A program made the position numbers and the translations under genes. From the IMG/VR virus record IMGVR_UViG_3300024322_000001: a DNA stretch of 64,000 bases; one strand, 5' to 3'. Shown here piece by piece: positions 31,504 through 46,734 of the stretch (position 1 is the first letter of the stretch; each line of letters begins with the position of its first letter). The notes under the pieces were generated by a model. That model saw only the letters and a program-made list of their open reading frames with translations, was not told where the DNA came from and did no database searches. Source of the DNA: a virus. Its lineage: Duplodnaviria > Caudoviricetes.

Positions 31504-33915
31504 TTAATGTCCTTCTTTCCAGTTGTCTGCTATTTCAGGAGGAGCTTTAAGAGTTACTCCAGGTAACTTAGTAGTATTCTCCATTATTTCCTGTACTACA
31601 GGTGCAAATATTGCTGCTTGATCTTCTTTAACGTTTATAATTAATTGATCATGTACCTGTGCCTGCACACAAGCATCAATACCCATCTCCTTAGCTTTTC
31701 GATTTATTACTAAAGCTGCTCTATTCACTACAGCTGCTGCTAAAGACTGTAATTGAAAATTAAGACAGTTATTTAACCCATTACGGTAATCTCTATAAGC
31801 TTGAGTAACCTGGTCTCTAGGTGATATCGTTTTTACTATTTCACCGTTCTTCTTTACGTATTTAGGAGATAGCTGAGTCTCGAGCTGCTTTCTAAATCTC
31901 CAATCCATCATTCTGTCTCCTACTTTTTCAAAGAGATTTTTAACTTTAGGTAAATGCCTTACTCTACCTACGTAGTTTTTTATGTAACCGTAATCTTTTA
32001 CTTGACGTCTAGATTCTTCTCGCCACTCTTTAAGTTGAGGAAAACCATCTAAGTAACCTTTTACAAGACTTTCAGCAGTTTTTTGATCAACACCTAAGGT
32101 CATTTTTAATGCATAAGCTTCCATACCGTATGCAATTCCTAACGAATAAGCTTTAGCCTTATTACGTGCTGGTGCATCTAATTTCTTGAGGTAGTTATCT
32201 GCTTTTTTATCTGCGGATACTCCATTCGGAAATCTGCTTTTTTGATCCTCTAATTTTTCAGTCTTTATAGCAACAGTGGAATAGAAGTCCCAACCTTTAT
32301 TAAAGATTTCTTGCAAAGCAACATCTCCAGTTACAGATGCAAAGCAATGAGGCTCCAAAGATTCGTAATCAGCATCGATTACTTTCCTACCTTTTCCTGC
32401 AGTTAAGAAAGCACGTACTATATTTACGTACTTCATAATAACTGGAGCATCTTCTCCATCTTCTAGAGGTTTAGGTAGTTGCTGAGCATCTGAACCGTAT
32501 CTGCCTGATACTGTACCGTTCTGCTTAAAGTAGAAGTAGTATCTACCGTCCTCATGACGGTCTCTAAATCTATCTACATAGGTAGATTTAATCTTTAAAA
32601 GTTTATTGTAGATACGTAAATTCTCAGCCCAAGGATACTCTTTTGCTAAGGTTTTTACCATATCCATATCAAACTTAGCTCTACCAGATTTAGTATTAGC
32701 ACCTGCTACTTTAGGTTCAATTCCCATATAACCGAAGACTATTTCACCCAAGTGTTTCTTAGACTGAATGTTAATATAATCTCCATCATTAGACTCTTTC
32801 CACATTGACATAGAAATACGTGCTTTTTCAACATCCTCTAGAAGGGATTCGTCTCCGGTTATCAGGAATTGCTTGACTGCTTCCTCTTTTTCATTAGAAG
32901 GTTCATACGCTTCAATGTTCTTTTGAGTAAGGGAGTACTTACCTGTCTTTTCACTTTTCGGTAGTGCAATAGAATATCGCTGGATTAGGTTTTGAGCCCA
33001 GTTACCTTTGTGAGATACTGGATAGTTAGTCATAGCTGTAGCAACTATCCACTCCTTTACTTCAGGAATAGCAATCAGAGATTTCATTACAATCTCTTTA
33101 TTCTTTTTCTGATCTTCTACTATTTCATTATGGATCTTTTCTAGTAGTTCCATATCTAAATCAACTCCGTATGCTTCCATAGGAACTGTTACTTCTCTGT
33201 ATATAGGCATTACCTCTTCTTCAAAAAAGAAATCCCATAATCCTTCATCTTTTAGTTTACCTAAGTATAGATTACATATACGTAAAGTTAAATCGGTATC
33301 TGCAGATGCATACTTAGATAGTATTTCTAAATCTGCTTTATATATCTGAAAGCTATCCTTGGTAACTGATCCTCCGTTACTTTTAATACTCTCTTTAAGT
33401 TCTATTTGCTCTTCGTTAGCTGCTTTTTCTACATCTAAACCTAAAGCTTCTTGATTCATTATAGCAATAGATTTTAATCCAAAAGGATTACCAAACCCAA
33501 ATGCTCCTTCTTCGTATACCGTATGAACTAGTAAACCTGTATCCACCCATACCGAAGGAAGTAAGTCTACATCAAAGTAATTCTTAATAAACTGAACGTC
33601 AAAGGAAGCATTATGAAATACTAATTTCTTTCCTATAAGAAGTTTAAGTAAGTTTTTAGATATAACCTCTGTCGATTGATCGTTAATCTCTTGAAGTACT
33701 AATTCATCTCTTTCGTAATCAAATACTAAAGTAGGTAGGTAGAAACCTATACCTTCATCTCCGGATACAGACCAACCAATTATTTTATCTTTACGAGGAT
33801 TCAATCCAGTAGTTTCAGTATCGACTGCAATTACATCTGAATCTAAGATATGCTGATGGAGTAGCATTAAAGTTTCCTCATCTTGAACCGTATAATACTT
33901 TTTTTCTAATTTCAT
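31504..33915 (-). CDS. polA: family A DNA polymerase with 3'-5' exonuclease
   Basis: Exo motifs VDTETTG, FHNASFD, YASAD; Pol motifs GTVSGR, DADYESLE, RNKAKAYSLGIAYG, QVHDQ. Confidence 0.93.
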   Translation of the reverse strand: MKLEKKYYTVQDEETLMLLHQHILDSDVIAVDTETTGLNPRKDKIIGWSVSGDEGIGFYLPTLVFDYERDELVLQEINDQSTEVISKNLLKLLIGKKLVFHNASFDVQFIKNYFDVDLLPSVWVDTGLLVHTVYEEGAFGFGNPFGLKSIAIMNQEALGLDVEKAANEEQIELKESIKSNGGSVTKDSFQIYKADLEILSKYASADTDLTLRICNLYLGKLKDEGLWDFFFEEEVMPIYREVTVPMEAYGVDLDMELLEKIHNEIVEDQKKNKEIVMKSLIAIPEVKEWIVATAMTNYPVSHKGNWAQNLIQRYSIALPKSEKTGKYSLTQKNIEAYEPSNEKEEAVKQFLITGDESLLEDVEKARISMSMWKESNDGDYINIQSKKHLGEIVFGYMGIEPKVAGANTKSGRAKFDMDMVKTLAKEYPWAENLRIYNKLLKIKSTYVDRFRDRHEDGRYYFYFKQNGTVSGRYGSDAQQLPKPLEDGEDAPVIMKYVNIVRAFLTAGKGRKVIDADYESLEPHCFASVTGDVALQEIFNKGWDFYSTVAIKTEKLEDQKSRFPNGVSADKKADNYLKKLDAPARNKAKAYSLGIAYGMEAYALKMTLGVDQKTAESLVKGYLDGFPQLKEWREESRRQVKDYGYIKNYVGRVRHLPKVKNLFEKVGDRMMDWRFRKQLETQLSPKYVKKNGEIVKTISPRDQVTQAYRDYRNGLNNCLNFQLQSLAAAVVNRAALVINRKAKEMGIDACVQAQVHDQLIINVKEDQAAIFAPVVQEIMENTTKLPGVTLKAPPEIADNWKEGH

Positions 33916-36410: not shown

Positions 36411-37016
36411 TTATTCTTTAATATAATCAATCCAATTAGTTCCTTTTGTATCTCTATTAGGAAATACAAATTTTCGTTTAATATCGCCAATAGTAATAGT
36501 CTTAATAAAACTAGAAGGTACCGTAGCACCAGTTCTTAATACTTCTGACTCGTCTGTAAATACTAACTCCACTCTTACATGTATATCAGTATTAAAAAAT
36601 TTAGCTGCATCTCTTTCAAATGCTTCTAATCTACTCCACTGTCCCCTATTTAACCCTTCGTGCTGTAATGCAGAATTAAAGTAAGAAAACGTGCTTCGTA
36701 AGGATTCTTCAGTACAGCTAAAAGAAGCTGCAGGAGCAAGGTGTCCTTTATCCCAAATATTGTTTTTATAGTCCTCATTATCGGATGTATCATAACCTTC
36801 CGGAATCCAAAAATCCATTCCATGTCTAGATTCCTTACCGTTAGGGCAAGTTATAGTATACTCCACCCATAATGGCTGTTGTAGTTTTTGATCGTACTCT
36901 ACTTTAAATGTTTCAGTTTCTACTATCTGTGCATTTAACGTTGATGTTACAAATATTGTTATAAAAAATATTATTGCAAATAATAATAATTTTTCTGAAG
37001 ATTCTAATTTATTCAT
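36411..37016 (-). CDS. exported DNA/RNA non-specific endonuclease (NucA/Serratia type)
   Basis: Signal peptide (NA-Q); WDKGHLAPAA and N..LQ...LNRGQW..LE motifs. Confidence 0.88.
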   Translation of the reverse strand: MNKLESSEKLLLFAIIFFITIFVTSTLNAQIVETETFKVEYDQKLQQPLWVEYTITCPNGKESRHGMDFWIPEGYDTSDNEDYKNNIWDKGHLAPAASFSCTEESLRSTFSYFNSALQHEGLNRGQWSRLEAFERDAAKFFNTDIHVRVELVFTDESEVLRTGATVPSSFIKTITIGDIKRKFVFPNRDTKGTNWIDYIKE

Positions 37017-37531
37017 TTTATAAATTCCATTATTTGTTCTACTCTTTGCATAGGAGAACCAGTTATAGTGAGATAAGGCTGACGTACACCTTCTAACACT
37101 GCTTGAAACTCATCATCTACTTCTTTTCTCCATTCTTCACTTATACTTCTTACTCCATCATCTACAGAATCAAATTCAATAGGAAAGTAAATATAATGAG
37201 TATATTCATTTTTTACCCTATTCCAAGTATCTTCTATATAGCTGTAAGTATGTGAAGTTACTCCTTTCATAAACTTAGTATAAACTACCACATCCATATA
37301 ACATCTATCTAATACTAAGTTATAAGGTTGAAGTAAAGCTTCTAAATGAAAGCTACTAATAGCTAACTGAGTAGCACAAGTACCTTCTTCGTTGATAGGA
37401 AATCCATAACTACCAACAGTTCTAGTAGATTCGTTTACGAATTCATATTTAGGTAATTTATTTTTAAGTAGTTCATAAACAGTAGTCTTACCTGTACTAC
37501 TTGCTCCTACTAATGCTATTCTTGTTATCAT
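37013..37531 (-). CDS. P-loop nucleotide kinase (AAA_28/NadR-like)
   Basis: GASSTGKTT, LDRCYMD and DDGVR motifs. Confidence 0.8.
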   Translation of the reverse strand: MITRIALVGASSTGKTTVYELLKNKLPKYEFVNESTRTVGSYGFPINEEGTCATQLAISSFHLEALLQPYNLVLDRCYMDVVVYTKFMKGVTSHTYSYIEDTWNRVKNEYTHYIYFPIEFDSVDDGVRSISEEWRKEVDDEFQAVLEGVRQPYLTITGSPMQRVEQIMEFIK

Positions 37532-37676
37532 AAAACCTATTTAATGTATTATACATACCTGCTATTCCAAAGTCAGCACCATATTTTTTATTTTGATCTA
37601 AAAAAAACATCATTAATCTTTGAAATGAATTACCTTCACTTTTTCTTACTAAATAAAATTCTTTATCTATATTCAT
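37497..37676 (-). CDS. small hypothetical protein (59 aa)
   Basis: Own translation MNIDKEFYLVRKSEGNSFQRLMMFFLD...; fills the gap. Confidence 0.5.
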   Translation of the reverse strand: MNIDKEFYLVRKSEGNSFQRLMMFFLDQNKKYGADFGIAGMYNTLNRFYDNKNSISRSK

Positions 37677-37679
37677 TTT

Positions 37680-38222
37680 CTATAAAATTTGTCTCAAAAA
37701 ATTGCACCACATATACAAGCTTCTATCTCTTAATATACGAAATAAATCATCTAATTCCAACTGAAAAGTATTAAATTTTTCTTCAGCAATAATTCTTCCT
37801 TCATCAACCTCAGCTACTACTTTATGCAATACTGCACCTGCTGTAGGATATTTACCTTCTTTAATACCTTCGAAAGCTCTTACTTGAGGATCTTTACCTT
37901 TCAGTTCTGGATATTCAGTTATGAGCCCTGGATGCCCATTATAGATAAGGTATTTTCTACATATAGAAGGAGGCATAACTCTTAACCACCCGTGTAAAGT
38001 AACTAAAGCATTATCTTCTAACACTACATCATAATCCTCTACTGATGGTTTATTCGGCAGGAAAATAATATCCATATCGAGTAATTCATCATTTATTTTT
38101 CTTAAATGCTCAGGTCTTTGATTAGTAATTATTTTATCAGGCCATCTACCAAATGCCTTTGCTATATCTACTATTTCAGTCCCTGTCTGACTAAAGAATG
38201 CTATCCAAAGTTTGTCTCCCAT
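37680..38222 (-). CDS. dpdN: PurN-like formyltransferase, probable preQ1 formyltransferase
   Basis: NGHPGLI..YPELKG, AGAVLHKV and VDEGRII motifs; overlaps the dpdA-like gene. Confidence 0.75.
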   Translation of the reverse strand: MGDKLWIAFFSQTGTEIVDIAKAFGRWPDKIITNQRPEHLRKINDELLDMDIIFLPNKPSVEDYDVVLEDNALVTLHGWLRVMPPSICRKYLIYNGHPGLITEYPELKGKDPQVRAFEGIKEGKYPTAGAVLHKVVAEVDEGRIIAEEKFNTFQLELDDLFRILRDRSLYMWCNFLRQIL

Positions 38223-39018
38223 TTGTAAACCATCTAAATTTTTGTATATTATTTTTAATTGTACCTAATTGCTCTATTGATATATCAGAGTTAATAAGTT
38301 CATGTAATTTTTGTCTCTCTTTAGACCATAATCCGTCTGATCTATATGTTATATTTTTAATACCGTGAACTACAGGATTTGAAGTATCTAAAGAGTATAT
38401 CCAGTCGTAATCAGAGTGCTTATAAAAACTAAATTCTTGAGGAAGCCCACAGCCGAGGAGATGATGAGGTTTAGTTTGATTAATTACTCCATCTCTAAGT
38501 AAGTCTCCTAGTAGCTTAACACGTCCTAGCATCCAACTAACATACTTGTTAGCATGAGGAACTGACTGTGTGTAGTACGAGTAATCAAAAGAAATAGCTA
38601 TCATATCTACATCTGCTGATTTATTCATATAGTTGTAGCAATCTACAATTTCATCATAGGATTTACCTTGTACTACACCTATTTTACCGCTTCCCTTATA
38701 TCCATACCCTTTATTAATCCAATCCTCCATCTGATCGCATGTTTTTTGAGCATCTTCCAAAGCATCTGGAACTATATACCAGGAAGGTTTAAGTTCGTTA
38801 ACCCATCTATTAAATTTATCTGCATCGAAAGCTTCTTCTAATTCAAAAATAGAATTATCTAAAATAACCTCTCTACCTTTACTTACTGCTTTTTTAAATT
38901 GAGCCAAGTATTCTTCATCTTCTTCAAATAAATGTACTAAAGCGTAATCGTAGTCTGTATACTTTTGAACTTCATCAAAAATACTTTTAGGACTTTCGTG
39001 TGCAATTTTTATATTCAT
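38191..39018 (-). CDS. dpdA: TGT-fold 7-deazaguanine transglycosylase (DpdA-like)
   Basis: ILDNSIFE, IVPD, GVVQG, HHLLG and SLDTSNP motifs; lies within the que gene cluster. Confidence 0.78.
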   Translation of the reverse strand: MNIKIAHESPKSIFDEVQKYTDYDYALVHLFEEDEEYLAQFKKAVSKGREVILDNSIFELEEAFDADKFNRWVNELKPSWYIVPDALEDAQKTCDQMEDWINKGYGYKGSGKIGVVQGKSYDEIVDCYNYMNKSADVDMIAISFDYSYYTQSVPHANKYVSWMLGRVKLLGDLLRDGVINQTKPHHLLGCGLPQEFSFYKHSDYDWIYSLDTSNPVVHGIKNITYRSDGLWSKERQKLHELINSDISIEQLGTIKNNIQKFRWFTNGRQTLDSIL

Positions 39019-39036
39019 ATAACTTATTTTTGATTT

Positions 39037-39237
39037 TTACTCTTTACCTTCCTTAAACGTATCGTCTAAAATATTTGAAATATATCTTACATAGCCGTCT
39101 AATTTATTCATTTCCGTATTAAGTTTTTTATCATACGTGAATACTTCTTTGACAGCCTGTTGAGCAATTTCTAGCGGCACATATTCTTTTCCGTCTACTG
39201 TTATAATGTAATCCTCTAAATTAGTACCCTTACTCAT
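39037..39237 (-). CDS. hypothetical protein
   Basis: 66-aa ORF within the operon. Confidence 0.6.
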   Translation of the reverse strand: MSKGTNLEDYIITVDGKEYVPLEIAQQAVKEVFTYDKKLNTEMNKLDGYVRYISNILDDTFKEGKE

Positions 39238-39733
39238 TGAAAAACTTTTTTAAATTAGGTCTAAAGTAATTAACTGATTTCATTACTTTTCTATCTCTTG
39301 TTCTGTATACAATATACAAGTCTTCTACTTTTTCATAATGACATTCTTCATTATAAGCTTTAGACCTGACGGCGACAGTTTCTTTTGCTTCTTCTTCAGT
39401 TTTACAAGCTTTAGACATATTAGAAGCCTGTACCTCTTGATATGCTGGCCATATCTTATCCTTAAGGCCGTGTAACATAGTACCGTTCCCAAGGGAAACA
39501 TAAGCAATGTCGCACAAAGCGTCCAAAACTTCAACGATGTCTCCGTTCTCACACGCTTCTCTATATTCTTCAAGCTCTTCGAGTATAAAGTCATATACGA
39601 ACTGCCACTCTTTCTTCTCTGGTATAGTCGGTTCATAGTTATTTGGTTTGCCAAATGTGGCATTAAATTCTTCTACTTCAGAAACAAATGGTACGTAATC
39701 TGTTTCTCGGAATAATGATAGTTGTTTACCCAT
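39230..39733 (-). CDS. MazG-like nucleoside-triphosphate pyrophosphohydrolase
   Basis: ILEELEEY...EVLDALCDIAYV...VQASNMSK...KVMK motifs. Confidence 0.85.
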   Translation of the reverse strand: MGKQLSLFRETDYVPFVSEVEEFNATFGKPNNYEPTIPEKKEWQFVYDFILEELEEYREACENGDIVEVLDALCDIAYVSLGNGTMLHGLKDKIWPAYQEVQASNMSKACKTEEEAKETVAVRSKAYNEECHYEKVEDLYIVYRTRDRKVMKSVNYFRPNLKKFFNE

Positions 39734-40169
39734 TTTTACTCATTTTTTTCCACCAATCTGTTTTATTGATGAGTTGTTTTTCTTTTCTGTCTACTAAATC
39801 GTCTAAATGATCGTATATACCACGATCCCAATCGTCTTGATATCTAATGATATCATCTTCTCCGAAATAATCTCCGGTTTGCACTTCTATAAATTGTACT
39901 GGTTTATCAGTTTTATTCCAAGCTCTATGTTTACTGCAGCAAGGTATGGTTATAGATTCACCAGGATTATCTAGAGAGTATTCATCACCATCTCTAATGA
40001 CAGTTAACTCTCCACTTACTAGAGTCCATTGCTCTTGTCTCTTCTCATGAGACTGATAGGATAATCTCTTACCTGGAGCTACGGTGATTAGTTTAACTTT
40101 AGTAAAGTCAGTATCTAATAGTACATCGTAGCAACCCCAAGGTCTTTCATCGTGTTCTAATGATTGCAT
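39726..40169 (-). CDS. cupin, type II mannose-6-phosphate isomerase C-terminal-like
   Basis: ERPWG, RLSYQSH.KR.EQW and IEVQTGDYFGEDDIIR motifs. Confidence 0.85.
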   Translation of the reverse strand: MQSLEHDERPWGCYDVLLDTDFTKVKLITVAPGKRLSYQSHEKRQEQWTLVSGELTVIRDGDEYSLDNPGESITIPCCSKHRAWNKTDKPVQFIEVQTGDYFGEDDIIRYQDDWDRGIYDHLDDLVDRKEKQLINKTDWWKKMSKNG

Positions 40170-40870
40170 TTCTCTGCTAATTCTATATTCTTATAAAACT
40201 CAGCTTTAGCTGATGGTTCATCTAAAAAGGCTCCAGTTAGTTTAGCTGTTTGCATTGATGCTCCTCCATGCTTAACTCCTCTACAGGAAACACAAGCGTG
40301 AGTTGCATTAACTTGAACTGCTACTCCTAAATTGCCTTCACATATCTTATCTACTGCATTATGTATAGCTACAGTTAACTGCTCTTGAATAGCTCCTCTT
40401 CTACCGAATTGTTCTACTATTCTATTTAGTTTAGATAGTCCTACTACCTTACCATCTTCTGAAGCTATATAAGCAATACTTACTGTGCCTCTAATAGCTT
40501 GATGATGATGCGAACACATAGACGTTACTGGTATGTTACTCTCTTGTACGATACCGTCATACCCGTCTGAAGGAAAAGCTGTAATCTTATCTAAAGGGCT
40601 ATATCTTCCAGCCCATAAATCGTTAACATATGCTTTAGCTACCCTAAATGGTGTATCTGCAGAGTTAGGATCTGCTGCATAATCACATCCTAAAGCGGTA
40701 AGGAACTCTGCATAAGCCTTTGCTGCTCTTTCTATAATTACTTGTTTTTCATGATCAGTAAGTCTTGCTTCTGGTCCTTCCAGCTTTTGTTTTTCTGCTA
40801 ATTGAGTTGAAATACCGTTAGCGAAACCGGCTTTTACTAATTCTGTTCCTTTTATAAACTTTTTTGGCAT
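40157..40870 (-). CDS. folE: GTP cyclohydrolase I
   Basis: DTPFRVAK, SMCSHH, GLSKLNR, IQEQLT and HACVSCRGV motifs. Confidence 0.96.
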   Translation of the reverse strand: MPKKFIKGTELVKAGFANGISTQLAEKQKLEGPEARLTDHEKQVIIERAAKAYAEFLTALGCDYAADPNSADTPFRVAKAYVNDLWAGRYSPLDKITAFPSDGYDGIVQESNIPVTSMCSHHHQAIRGTVSIAYIASEDGKVVGLSKLNRIVEQFGRRGAIQEQLTVAIHNAVDKICEGNLGVAVQVNATHACVSCRGVKHGGASMQTAKLTGAFLDEPSAKAEFYKNIELAEKCNH

Positions 40871-40878
40871 AATATAAT

Positions 40879-40910
40879 TTATGTTTTTATTGAGGTTCTA
40901 CGACTCATTA
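40879..40910 (-). ncRNA. candidate preQ1-I-like riboswitch aptamer (folE leader)
   Basis: UGAG-UCGUAGAAC-CUCA-AUAAAAA-C-AUA between the promoter and the folE ATG. Confidence 0.65.
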
Positions 40911-40917
40911 CTATAAC

Positions 40918-40949
40918 TTAATATAAGAACTTTTATTCATTAATCCAAA
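40918..40949 (-). promoter_or_regulatory. Bacteroidota-type promoter for the folE-dpdA-dpdN-queF run
   Basis: TTTG-N20-TATATTAA. Confidence 0.72.
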
Positions 40950-41359
40950 TAATCTTGAATTGTTTTTGAATCTTTTTTCTCCCATGGGTACACGATCCAA
41001 TCAGTAGTTTCTAACCAATTGCAGTAGAAGTCTGGTTTTGTTACTGTAGTGTTTCTTACGTCTAATGTAGCTGTTGTGTATCCCTGTTTCTTAAAGTGTT
41101 TGAGGGTCTGTCCAGAGTCGGATATATCATCCACTATTAATATTTTTTTCTTATCTATATTAAGGTTAAACTCCTCTAACTTTTCTAGATGGTCTATAGT
41201 TATGTGCTTTATCCCCAGTTTATGAGACATAATGACTGCTACTACTAAACCTCCTCTCGGTATACCTACTACGTAATCTACATTTTTAATTTTATTTGCT
41301 AATTTTTCTACCTGGTGGTCTATATCGTTCCAGGTAACGAATACTTTTTTTGGAGTCAT
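40940..41359 (-). CDS. type I phosphoribosyltransferase (Gpt-like)
   Basis: GIPRGGL, ILIVDDISDSGQTL and WIVYPWE motifs. Confidence 0.9.
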   Translation of the reverse strand: MTPKKVFVTWNDIDHQVEKLANKIKNVDYVVGIPRGGLVVAVIMSHKLGIKHITIDHLEKLEEFNLNIDKKKILIVDDISDSGQTLKHFKKQGYTTATLDVRNTTVTKPDFYCNWLETTDWIVYPWEKKDSKTIQDYLD

Positions 41360-41665: not shown

Positions 41666-41789
41666 TTATAAAAATTTTTAGTTTATCTATTAATACTAGT
41701 ACATCGTCTGGTTCCATAGTAATAGCACAGCATGTATTAATATTTTCTTCTACTTCTTCTAATATCTCTAAAGCTTCGTCTTTAGTCAT
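41655..41789 (-). CDS. small hypothetical protein (44 aa)
   Basis: Own translation MTKDEALEILEEVEENINTCCAITMEPDDVLVLIDKLKIFINEL; coupled to the queE stop. Confidence 0.55.
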   Translation of the reverse strand: MTKDEALEILEEVEENINTCCAITMEPDDVLVLIDKLKIFINEL

Positions 41790-42577
41790 TATACTTCACG
41801 TTGATCTTCAAAAGCAATGATATGCGGTCTCCAAGTCATTCTATAACCATTATCTCTAACCCAATCAAATAATACCGGATAAGATTTAAATAATGCTTCC
41901 CTTGAATCTCCTGCAGGCATAAACCATACCTTACTTTTAGGTATTTTTAACCTGTAAATACAGGTCATTATTTCCTCTAAAGCTTTTTCATCTTTACCAT
42001 CCCATACAGGTTTTAAATGATAGTCAGAGTGGTAATTGATACTTTCTTCTATAGCATCATAATTAAGTCTAAACTTATTATGCTGCTTTATCATTCTTTC
42101 GTCAGTAATCCCTCCTTGAGGAGTCTCTACGCCAATGACTGGAACAGAATTAGAAAACTTAGGGCTAATAGATAGCAGATTAATAGGGTAATCTGTGGGT
42201 AGAAAGTGACTACCTTCAGTTTCGATAGTAATAAATATATTATTCTCATTTGCAAAGTGTGTTAATTCGTTTACCAAAGCTGGATGCATTGTAGGAGAAC
42301 CTCCTGTTAGCATCATTTCTTTAATATGGGGGTTATCTTTATACTTTTGTATAATATCGTTAAAATTAAATTGACCTTTTTCTGGATGGATTGAAGTATA
42401 CCAGCTATCACACCAGCCTCCTTCTCCAAAGTAACATCTATGGGTACAGCCAGTAGTTCTAATTACTATAGTTGGGTACCCTGCTCTTGAACCTTCTGAC
42501 TGTACTGCAGTATAAACTTCTACAATCGGTAAGTTCTTTTCGTAATCTTCTATTCTTTTTAATTGTTTATGCGACAT
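41789..42577 (-). CDS. queE: 7-carboxy-7-deazaguanine synthase (radical SAM)
   Basis: VQSEG, RTTGCTHRC...WCDS, LTGG, IETEGS and SISPK motifs. Confidence 0.9.
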   Translation of the reverse strand: MSHKQLKRIEDYEKNLPIVEVYTAVQSEGSRAGYPTIVIRTTGCTHRCYFGEGGWCDSWYTSIHPEKGQFNFNDIIQKYKDNPHIKEMMLTGGSPTMHPALVNELTHFANENNIFITIETEGSHFLPTDYPINLLSISPKFSNSVPVIGVETPQGGITDERMIKQHNKFRLNYDAIEESINYHSDYHLKPVWDGKDEKALEEIMTCIYRLKIPKSKVWFMPAGDSREALFKSYPVLFDWVRDNGYRMTWRPHIIAFEDQREV

Positions 42578-43031
42578 AATAAGCTGCGTTTTTTCCGTGT
42601 TCCATAAATTTTACTTTCGTCACCTTAACTCTACCTTCTGTTTCTTCTTCTACAAAATCATTTAATTTATTAAAAATATATTCTGCAAATTTTTCTGCTC
42701 CGGTAGCAGGTATAACTCTGATTTGTGCTACTTCTGATAATCCCATATGTAGAAATTTATCTAAATAGGGGTCGTCCTGAGCAACTATGAAGGTATGGTC
42801 GAACATATAATCCATCCATTGCTTAGGAGATAAGCCATCTATTTTAGTCTTAGCTCTTTTCATACCTCCGAAGTCCCATACCCAGTTTCTGTAGTCTAAT
42901 TCTCCTTCAAAATATACTTTAAATGCTACTCCGTAGCCGTGAACAAACCTACAATGTGTATCTTCTGCTTTCCATTGACGGAACACAGTAGAGAACCCGT
43001 CGAATACTTTACTTGATTGAAATTTTCCCAT
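42567..43031 (-). CDS. queD: 6-carboxy-5,6,7,8-tetrahydropterin synthase
   Basis: HCRFVHGY, WDFG, FDH and GAE motifs. Confidence 0.9.
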   Translation of the reverse strand: MGKFQSSKVFDGFSTVFRQWKAEDTHCRFVHGYGVAFKVYFEGELDYRNWVWDFGGMKRAKTKIDGLSPKQWMDYMFDHTFIVAQDDPYLDKFLHMGLSEVAQIRVIPATGAEKFAEYIFNKLNDFVEEETEGRVKVTKVKFMEHGKNAAYYVA

Positions 43032-43040
43032 ATCTTTAAT

Positions 43041-43274
43041 TTAAACTAATTCTTCCCCTATTCCAACTATTTCTGCTAAAAATAGACCTATAAAGCCTAA
43101 TTCAAACATACCAAAGAAGCCAAAAGCACATGCTCCTAGCCTAATAGCTGATTTTAAAAATGAAATTCTTTGGTGAAGTTTCGGATCAGGTATTTTCTGT
43201 CCGTCGATCTCAATAGAACCTTTTTGTTTTTTAAACTCCGTATCTTTATACAGAGTATTTGCTTTTTTACTCAT
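43041..43274 (-). CDS. small membrane protein, first gene of the queD-queE operon
   Basis: Hydrophobic C-terminal half ending LAEIVGIGEELV. Confidence 0.7.
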   Translation of the reverse strand: MSKKANTLYKDTEFKKQKGSIEIDGQKIPDPKLHQRISFLKSAIRLGACAFGFFGMFELGFIGLFLAEIVGIGEELV

Positions 43275-43276
43275 AT

Positions 43277-43308
43277 TGGTGTTTTTAAAGTGGTGCTACG
43301 ACACTATA
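43277..43308 (-). ncRNA. candidate preQ1-I-like riboswitch aptamer (queD-queE operon leader)
   Basis: AGUG-UCGUAGCAC-CACU-UUAAAAA-C-ACC; same architecture as the folE leader. Confidence 0.6.
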
Positions 43309-43322
43309 GTCTTATATTACTT

Positions 43323-43354
43323 ATAATATAATAAAAAAAGGGATAGTAAGCAAC
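43323..43354 (-). promoter_or_regulatory. Bacteroidota-type promoter for the queD-queE-PRTase run
   Basis: GTTG-N20-TATATTAT. Confidence 0.7.
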
Positions 43355-43363
43355 TATCCCCTT
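43333..43363 (-). terminator. intrinsic terminator after the fibre-like genes (overlaps the next promoter)
   Basis: GGGATAGT-loop-ACTATCCC followed by a U run. Confidence 0.8.
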
Positions 43364-43382
43364 AGTTTTTTTTAAATTATTT

Positions 43383-45131
43383 TTATGCTAGTAATGCTAA
43401 TAAAGAACCTGTAAAGTCATTGTAGTTTGTTGACCCTGTTAATGCAGCTCTTAATTTTGCTTTGCTAACATAATTTAATTCAATAGAAGCTGATGGTACA
43501 AATGTGTAAGCATCCTGCTCTAAATCGTGAATATCGTTATGATTTTCTGTCCACGATTGTGCTATAGAAGCAGACAGCATTGTAAATGAACCTGTAATGT
43601 CAGCTTTTAAAGCGTATGAACTTGTTGCTGCTAATAGTCCTAGTTGCGAACCAGATAATGCAGCTATATCGTCATTGTTGTTACTTACATCGGTTTGTAG
43701 AATTGCTATGTCATCTACATTGGCAGTAGTCACGACTGCAAAAGATGCTGAAACTGCATCTAGCTGTGCATCAGTAGCATACTCACTATCTATAGAGGAA
43801 CTAAAACTTTCTAAGCTTATAATTCTAGCATCTAAAGAAGCTGTAGCTGTATATAATTCATCTTCAGAAGCATATATATTATCAAATGAAGAACTAAAGT
43901 TTAATAGATGTGCTGTTTCTAAAGCAAGTGATGAAGACACACTATCTAGTTGTGCGTCTGTAGCATAATAGTTGTCTAAAGAAGAACTAAAGTGATCTAA
44001 TCTAGCTATAGATTCCGAGACATTGCTATATCCTGCTATCGATAATTGACCAGATTCTGCTTTAATATTTCTAATTGTGACAATGTCATTATCTGCTGAT
44101 ATTTTGCCAGTGGTATTTATATCATCAGAAGCATATATAGTACCGGTTACCGCGATTCCATTAGTAGTAGTTGAGAATTTTTTAGCATTATCATAATAAA
44201 GCTCAATAGGACCATCTTTTGTAAACTTAGCAAAAGTTTCTCCCAATTGTCCTGATTTGATTTCAACTTCATTATCTGAAACTATTAATAGATCTCCAGA
44301 TCCTTTTTCCTGTATATGTGAATTTCCAGCTACATCTGAGAATATATCTAGTTTGCTATCTATTGCAATTTTTCTACCTGCTGTGGCAAGTATTATATCT
44401 CCATTGGATACTGTTACTGTACCTTCTTGATCAAGAGTACCAATTCTAGTATAGTCTCCTTTTTGACCAGTATCTCCATTGTGATCTATATCACCAAGTA
44501 AAAAAGTACTACCTGTAATTGATAAATCTCCTTTAAATTTACTATCTGCATTTACATAGAAAGGATAGTCAGCTTCTTCTTTTAGATTTGCTCCTAATTT
44601 AAATCTACTTGAAGAAGGATGGTTAATCTGTATTCCTGCATATCTGGTAGGAATACCAGATTCTACTTTATAGTAGTCTTCTAATTTAATATGTTCTCCA
44701 TTACCACCAGCTACTCCATCTCTTCCTGCTTCAGAGATACTAAATTTATTATTATAAAAAGTAGTATAGTTTACGTTTGAAGACGTAGTTTCTGCTGCTA
44801 ATTGAAGACCGTGTAAACCTTCTGTATCAGTCGGTAGTACCTCTAACAATCCTCCTCCGTTAACTCCCTTTTGAAGATTTATATCGTCTCCTAGAGTTAT
44901 AGATTTATTAGAATCTAATCCTCCACTAACAAATACTGAACCTGTGAAGTTATGTAGATCATCTGCAGAATCTCCAAACAGAGTAGAACCTGATCTGTAG
45001 ATGATTGATGTTTGTACTTTTTCCGTTATAAATTGTTCTGCAGTTACATCTCCTGTAACTATCAGACTGCCGGATAGACTTACTATCTGTCCGCTTATCG
45101 GTTTAATGCTATTTACTCTAATTCTACTCAT
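43383..45131 (-). CDS. tail-fibre-like virion protein
   Basis: SGS/TGS-rich beta repeats, SIIYRSGSTLFGDSADDLHNFTGS motif, C-terminal coiled-coil repeats (YATDAQLD); TATTTAT upstream. Confidence 0.6.
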   Translation of the reverse strand: MSRIRVNSIKPISGQIVSLSGSLIVTGDVTAEQFITEKVQTSIIYRSGSTLFGDSADDLHNFTGSVFVSGGLDSNKSITLGDDINLQKGVNGGGLLEVLPTDTEGLHGLQLAAETTSSNVNYTTFYNNKFSISEAGRDGVAGGNGEHIKLEDYYKVESGIPTRYAGIQINHPSSSRFKLGANLKEEADYPFYVNADSKFKGDLSITGSTFLLGDIDHNGDTGQKGDYTRIGTLDQEGTVTVSNGDIILATAGRKIAIDSKLDIFSDVAGNSHIQEKGSGDLLIVSDNEVEIKSGQLGETFAKFTKDGPIELYYDNAKKFSTTTNGIAVTGTIYASDDINTTGKISADNDIVTIRNIKAESGQLSIAGYSNVSESIARLDHFSSSLDNYYATDAQLDSVSSSLALETAHLLNFSSSFDNIYASEDELYTATASLDARIISLESFSSSIDSEYATDAQLDAVSASFAVVTTANVDDIAILQTDVSNNNDDIAALSGSQLGLLAATSSYALKADITGSFTMLSASIAQSWTENHNDIHDLEQDAYTFVPSASIELNYVSKAKLRAALTGSTNYNDFTGSLLALLA

Positions 45132-46589: not shown

Positions 46590-46660
46590 GTATACACTTA
46601 TATTGTATAAATAGCTGAATAATCTGATTTAGTAGTGATTTATTAATCAGTAAAATTTAG

Positions 46661-46734
46661 TGGAGAATATCGGAGTCGAACCGATGACCTCCTGCGTGCA
46701 AGGCAGGCGCTCTAGCCAGCTGAGCTAATCCCCC
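46661..46734 (-). tRNA. tRNA-Ala(UGC)
   Basis: GGGGGATTAGCTCAGCTGGCTAGAGCGCCTGCCTTGCACGCAGGAGGTCATCGGTTCGACTCCGATATTCTCCA: full cloverleaf with G3:U70; CCA is not encoded. Confidence 0.97.

Follow-up and report, generated by a model that had tools for sequence, protein, structure and literature searches.

Ligand recognition by class I preQ1 riboswitches relies on a specificity C located just 5' of the P1 3' strand, on the A before that C in type II aptamers, and on the first L1 uridine, the last L3 adenine and the G-C floor of P1 (PMC11625349). Phages are reported to contain riboswitches only rarely (McCown et al. 2017, PMC5473149), with c-di-GMP-I aptamers of C. difficile prophages and glutamine aptamers of cyanophages as known cases (PMC5473149). 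In Flavobacterium phage immuto, a dedicated gene set replaces all G in DNA with formyl-preQ1 (PMC10516641). The immuto study covers enzymes and DNA chemistry; it describes no regulation of phage 7-deazaguanine DNA modification, and the words riboswitch, regulation and promoter do not occur in its text (PMC10516641). Furthermore, the literature we searched contained no paper linking riboswitches with DpdA or phage 7-deazaguanine clusters, in agreement with a first-pass annotation of the locus that knew of no described riboswitch control of phage DNA hypermodification.

The window, meaning the whole 64,000-nucleotide stretch of DNA analyzed here, belongs to an uncultured phage related to immuto; nucleotide identity is 74% over the region from the phosphoribosyltransferase gene (PRTase) to folE. 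It encodes queC, queD, queE, PRTase, folE, cupin, MazG-like, dpdA, formyltransferase, AAA ATPase, nuclease and queF proteins. Gene content and order are shared with immuto for queD, queE, PRTase, folE, mazG-like, dpdA, formyltransferase, ATPase and queF. The PRTase stop codon (40942-40940) lies upstream of folE, which heads the string folE-cupin-mazG-dpdA-formyltransferase-ATPase-nuclease-queF. Two small elements resembling preQ1-I aptamers are present, one in the folE leader (copy 1) and one in the leader of the queD-queE operon (copy 2), whereas immuto has one copy, before folE (Table 1). The immuto folE element (32363-32392) is identical except for the outer stem pair, where G-C replaces U-A in a compensatory manner; the flanks diverge and carry indels. 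The immuto queD unit (L001:540-600) displays a TATATTA box 5 nt 5' of the ATG and no aptamer, and its mRNA may possibly be leaderless.

Table 1. Positions of the two aptamer copies and of the genes and signals around them
Feature	Position	Strand	Details
Aptamer copy 1, folE leader	40907..40880	minus	Sequence reading, pattern counts, model R1
Copy 1 P1	40907-40904 paired with 40894-40891		4 bp
Copy 1 loop	40903-40895		UCGUAGAAC, 9 nt
Copy 1 L3, A-rich tail	40890-40884		AUAAAAA, 7 nt
Copy 1 P2 3' strand	C40883, A40882, U40881, A40880		C40883 is the tail C
Aptamer copy 2	43305..43278	minus	AGUG-UCGUAGCAC-CACU-UUAAAAAC-ACC
Copy 2 P1	43305-43302 paired with 43292-43289		AGUG with CACU
Copy 2 loop	43301-43293		UCGUAGCAC
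Copy 2 L3	43288-43282
Copy 2 tail	C43281, A43280, C43279, C43278
folE (GTP cyclohydrolase I)	40157..40870	minus	Pfam GTP_cyclohydroI, E = 1e-41
folE start codon	40868..40870	minus	No preceding Shine-Dalgarno sequence
Promoter, folE unit, Bacteroidota-type	40918..40948	minus	TTG (40948-40946), 20 nt, TATATTAA (40925-40918)
Promoter, queD unit	43323..43353	minus	TTG (43353-43351), 20 nt, TATATTAT (43330-43323)
Intrinsic terminator of upstream tail-fibre-like gene	43337..43363	minus
Operon under copy 2	41789..43274	minus	77-aa membrane protein, queD, queE
77-aa predicted membrane protein	43274-43041	minus	First gene of copy 2 operon
queD	43031-42567	minus
queE	42577-41789	minus

The minus strand of 40910..40879 reads UAA-UGAG-UCGUAGAAC-CUCA-AUAAAAAC-AUAA, letter for letter the motif (UGAG-UCGUAGAAC-CUCA-AUAAAAAC-AUA) that the first-pass annotation had placed in the folE leader. 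Other features it had named also held: the 4-bp P1 and 9-nt loop are present, the G-C closing pair and terminal loop C are present and invariant across copies, the promoter assigned to 40918-40949 is read as TTG-N20-box, and the second of its two copies was located in the queD-queE leader. The proposed A-rich initiation region without a Shine-Dalgarno sequence held as regards the missing sequence; its masking remains inferred. The folE-unit promoter ends 10 nt from P1, the tail C of copy 1 is separated from the folE AUG at 40870 by 12 nt, and copy 2 lies 6 nt upstream of the AUG at 43274. A TTG plus a TATATT-like box is kept 5' of most homologous aptamer copies, the queD-unit promoter pattern being likewise shared, and is also kept in relatives that have no aptamer. 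Because the intrinsic terminator of the upstream tail-fibre-like gene precedes copy 2, this copy opens a new transcript. Neither phage leader contains a Shine-Dalgarno sequence or a terminator as expression platform.

The element shares with preQ1-I type II aptamers (T. tengcongensis [Tte], B. subtilis queC; RF00522) an H-type pseudoknot design (inferred for the element), a P1 hairpin closed by G-C, a loop that starts with UC and ends with AC, an A-rich L3 and a tail C positioned to pair with a loop G. Linkage to preQ0/preQ1 synthesis genes is also common to both, and the Tte switch controls translation, as is inferred here. In contrast to type II, the element has a P1 of 4 rather than 5 bp, an L2 of 3 rather than 4-6 nt, an L3 of 7 rather than 8-9 nt and a whole aptamer of ~28 rather than 33-34 nt. 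Compared directly with the Tte aptamer (sequence from PMC10639078), its loop, UCGUAG-AAC, differs from UCGCAGUAAC by one substitution and one deletion, its P1 is one pair shorter and its L3 is two bases shorter. The RF00522 consensus tail, AUAAAAAACUAAGGA, holds a Shine-Dalgarno sequence (CUAAGG), whereas the tail of the element and the phage leaders have none.

Both copies stand above chance. The full descriptor of 4-bp stem, loop and tail matches the 116-kb virus record at two sites and has no match in any of 300 dinucleotide shuffles, and the loop-plus-tail pattern with ≤1 mismatch gives two matches against 0.01 expected. The copy 1 25-mer occurs a single time in the window, with 0 occurrences expected. 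Model R1 scores copy 1 at 44.5 bits and copy 2 at 48.6 bits, and its next best match reaches only 12.7 bits. By descriptor and model R1, no further copy was found before queC, before queF or elsewhere in the window. Thermodynamic folding as the sole criterion fails to pick out the P1 hairpin, which at -1.5 kcal/mol (z = -0.75) is no more stable than shuffles.

Fetched IMG/VR phage loci yielded 196 descriptor matches, of which 187, representing 77 distinct sequences, are que-linked. All 187 lie 2-13 nt 5' of the start codon of folE, folE2 or a queD/queE operon, measured from tail C to AUG, with 6 nt the most frequent spacing in queD-type copies. The remaining matches sit mostly at truncated locus ends; two have off-consensus loops and were set aside as looking like chance. 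To avoid ascertainment bias for P1, IMG/VR was also scanned with the stem left free, which returned 127 matches, 94 with a fully complementary stem and 33 unpaired. Where the flank was long enough, all fully paired matches lie ahead of folE or a queD/queE operon, versus 0/33 of the unpaired. When a stem-plus-loop pattern without tail was used, que linkage was observed only where the A-rich tail was also present.

Loci were additionally retrieved by FolE protein, a search blind to the RNA, and the 80 closest were taken. Loop and tail are present in 53/80, and the stem forms 4/4 pairs in 52 of these 53. The other 27/80 keep the promoter with only a short leader and no aptamer; therefore, the aptamer behaves as a modular insert. 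It is also dispensable, being absent from these 27 related folE leaders and from the immuto queD leader; nor does it accompany the related folE, queD and queE genes of Cellulophaga phages phiST and phi13:1. Two contigs have the element in front of a gene for a FolE2-type cyclohydrolase (PF02649), non-homologous to FolE, and some copies directly precede queD, queE or a small membrane gene heading queD-queE. Orientation is always sense to the downstream gene. The phage sequences are related, and counts therefore exceed the number of independent events. Both aptamer copies, with phage-like queD, queE, PRTase and folE, also occur on contig NYWG01000135.1 (5.9 kb), filed as a Verrucomicrobiales MAG. 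Identity is 85-89% for its QueE and FolE, and the contig is probably a piece of phage DNA that was binned with bacterial contigs.

Comparison of the 77 sequences supports the stem at the level of base pairing. P1 pair 1 is AU, UA, GC or CG, pair 2 is GC, AU or CG, and pair 3 is UA or AU; thus, covariation is seen at three of the four pairs, and a G-C closes the stem in 77/77. The first loop U (U5) is invariant, as is the AC at the loop end in all que-linked copies, including those obtained with loop-free patterns. L3 contains 4-8 A and is followed by C and then A, the latter (A26) being invariant although earlier search patterns did not demand it. Natural loop variants are UCACAG, UCGGAG, UCGAAG and UUGAAG. 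All class I preQ1-contact positions listed in PMC11625349 are represented in the element by invariant bases.

Evidence for the pseudoknot is less uniform. The first-pass annotation had paired a loop G with the tail C (G10-C25); both bases are invariant, and because they never vary, covariation cannot test the pair. A second pseudoknot pair, N8:N28, which corresponds to C9-G33 of T. tengcongensis, forms (U-A, U.G, C-G or G-C) in 37/43 queD-type copies. The shuffle mean is 30.6, 0/2000 shuffles reach 37, and this is the sole working register. In folE-type copies the pair forms in 17/30, which is not above chance. Thus, N8:N28 has covariation support in queD-type copies only. P2 pair counts were anchored on the tail C, as the MAFFT alignment left the A-tract ungapped and blurred them.

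A bacterial genome scan revealed that about 27 Thalassospira genomes carry the core CCUG-UCGUAGCAC-CAGG-UUAAAAACA ahead of queC-queD-queE; four Vibrio and two Marinomonas genomes have it as well, followed there by an intrinsic terminator and then by queD-queE. Loop UCGUAGCAC and tail UUAAAAACA(C) of these unannotated leader elements are identical to those of window copy 2, and P1 is again 4 bp (CCUG/CAGG). The bacterial platforms are a terminator or a purine-rich (GAAAGA) leader, perhaps a ribosome-binding site, whereas phage copies have no terminator and no Shine-Dalgarno sequence. One aptamer joined to several expression platforms, and to different genes of one pathway, is a typical riboswitch signature. 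Each of three bacterial genomes searched whole has one copy, and among genomes of the Vibrio order that were searched, the starting genome was the sole match. A sample of 151 Bacteroidia genomes yielded no convincing copy: RF00522 returned nothing, and the single match to model R1 (31.7 bits) was rejected, as it has no loop AG and falls within a 766-aa ORF encoded on the other strand. Vibrio and Marinomonas loci (e.g. L383:3325-3410; also L370, L378 and L390-L392) carry a conserved box, GUGCUGCAUUGUUA, after the terminator. Its start is complementary to the aptamer loop GUAGCAC and perhaps reflects a second, translational layer of control.

The Rfam search proposed as a check of the original annotation gave no match to the PreQ1 family at the motif. 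RF00522 showed no match at E ≤ 10 on segments of 47-221 nt, even when phage and bacterial copies were given in segments of only 47-56 nt, none over the whole window and none at the motif site in a genome search. At gathering and E-value thresholds, no Rfam riboswitch family was detected on either window copy. The element scores below about 9 bits against a gathering threshold of 39 bits for RF00522, and B. subtilis, the positive control, was detected. We therefore file the phage and bacterial copies as a compact variant, not as a catalogued member. A lack of conservation upstream of que genes in related phages, one part of the annotation's refuting condition, is not the case, as the 187 que-linked instances show. 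Its central claim of a preQ1-I-like riboswitch is supported by covariation, invariant contacts, que linkage and bacterial platforms, with binding and OFF direction still inferred. The sole Rfam PreQ1 match in the genome (17.3 bits, 43356-43391, minus strand) is not the element; it is an A-run plus CUAAGG that overlaps the terminator, 50 nt from copy 2.

We conclude that the element is likely a compact preQ1-I riboswitch variant, probably acting as a translational OFF switch. Motif, conservation, stem covariation, gene linkage, bacterial relatives and promoter are demonstrated; ligand, pseudoknot docking and OFF direction are inferred, without ligand, structure or expression data. In the proposed model, nearly the entire mRNA 5' leader consists of the element, a miniature preQ1 aptamer of class I (type II-like), the TTG-N20-TATATT phage promoter starting the transcript a few bases 5' of a weak 4-bp P1. 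An accumulating free 7-deazaguanine base, most likely preQ1 and next preQ0, would pair with the last loop C and stack on the invariant P1-closing G-C, with the first loop U and the last tail A reading it. Docking of the A-tract along P1 and pairing of the tail C-A-N-N with the loop (G10-C25, N8-N28) would then complete an H-type pseudoknot, predicted to extend from about -37 to -10 in folE and from about -31 to -4 in the queD operon. Because P1 alone is weak, it would be ligand-driven docking of A-tract and tail that structures the A-rich initiation region. These messages lack a Shine-Dalgarno sequence and depend on an open A-rich leader, so this fold should block 30S binding and turn translation off. 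Together, the two switches would throttle GTP cyclohydrolase I and QueD/QueE as feedback on a pathway that in the related phage immuto replaces all G in the DNA.

Several alternatives were weighed against this model. The same fold could serve as a riboswitch for a ligand other than preQ1, such as preQ0, formyl-preQ1 base, CDG, guanine or a pterin intermediate between FolE and QueD. In favor of this possibility, the phages make formyl-preQ1 DNA and encode QueF plus a formyltransferase (PMC10516641), and the shorter L2/L3 loops and 4-bp P1 could reshape the pocket. Every class I preQ1-contacting position is nonetheless kept, and loop and tail are identical to those of bacterial queC-queD-queE (tRNA queuosine) copies, where formyl-preQ1 is not expected. 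An intermediate lying between the two controlled steps also fits poorly, as both phage copies have one core and one wiring, an arrangement that favors end-product repression. We regard a non-preQ1 ligand as unlikely. Also improbable is a preQ1-type switch that turns translation on upon binding, for example by freeing an inhibitory pairing. A competing GUGU/GCAC mini-hairpin and a GAC/GUC pairing are indeed predicted in copy 2. However, a tail C within 2-13 nt of the AUG leaves no room for a separate expression platform, folding indicates no conserved alternative pairing with the start region in either copy, and a product that activates the first enzymes of its pathway would be unusual logic.

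A leader hairpin bound by protein or ribosome, acting as a translational operator or stability element and sensing no small molecule, is harder still to sustain. In its favor, the element is very small, binding data are lacking, and the queD operon opens with a gene for a conserved small protein. Against it, the same core exists in Proteobacteria that lack the phage proteins and there has a terminator-type platform, the positions that never vary coincide exactly with the class I ligand contacts, and the element tracks an enzymatic step across the change from folE to non-homologous folE2. Finally, the element could act at the DNA level as part of a promoter, or the hairpin could have arisen by chance in an AT-rich leader, consistent with the adjoining conserved promoter and with an A-rich tail that matches leader composition. 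This reading can be practically dismissed: compensatory stem changes are unexpected of a promoter, no shuffle matches the descriptor, relatives keep the promoter without the element, and orientation is always sense.

A bolder version of the preferred riboswitch reading can be put as one joint claim, which we consider modestly favored by the evidence. The element would be a fourth, miniature preQ1-I type (~28 nt, 4-bp P1) and the smallest natural riboswitch aptamer, folding an A-rich initiation region that has no Shine-Dalgarno sequence. It would be used by many Flavobacteriia phages, often in pairs, to govern replacement of guanine by formyl-preQ1, and would be the first known regulator of phage DNA hypermodification. 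Like known phage riboswitches, the element would be a metabolite-sensing RNA in a phage genome, sensing being inferred. Those are isolated members of standard families, whereas the element is a widespread, paired variant placed on the phage's own DNA-modification pathway. It was found in well over a hundred of the fetched phage loci, often with two copies in one genome, versus a handful of known phage riboswitches (PMC5473149), and if the claim is correct it provides a counter-example to the view that phages rarely use them. Feedback on GTP cyclohydrolase I would explain how all G can be converted without a blind drain of GTP. Riboswitches in mRNAs lacking a Shine-Dalgarno sequence were considered an open challenge in a 2024 review (PMC11625349), and these leaders offer a natural, minimal test case in Bacteroidota-type translation. 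A 28-nt aptamer, if confirmed, would also set a new lower size limit and might find use as a compact control part. Phage immuto on Flavobacterium sp. LMO8 provides a cultured test system.

Additional features of the locus were observed. Many queD-type copies have a semi-conserved GAC(A/U)AU 3-8 nt 5' of P1 (window 43313-43306, for example) that can pair with GUC at the P1-loop junction and is perhaps start-site context or a weak anti-aptamer. The 77-aa membrane protein belongs to no Pfam family, carries the conserved motif PDPKLHQxISFxKSGIR and is the leading gene in most riboswitch-led queD-queE operons of related phages. A tRNA-Ala (TGC) gene is located at 46660-46734 on the minus strand, between tail-fibre-like genes and queC. 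The minus-strand cluster at 36411-41359 encodes a secreted-type non-specific endonuclease and, adjoining dpdA, an HPRT-like phosphoribosyltransferase, a MazG-like pyrophosphohydrolase and an AAA_28/thymidylate-kinase-like ATPase. This content raises the possibility that part of the base replacement proceeds via nucleotides.
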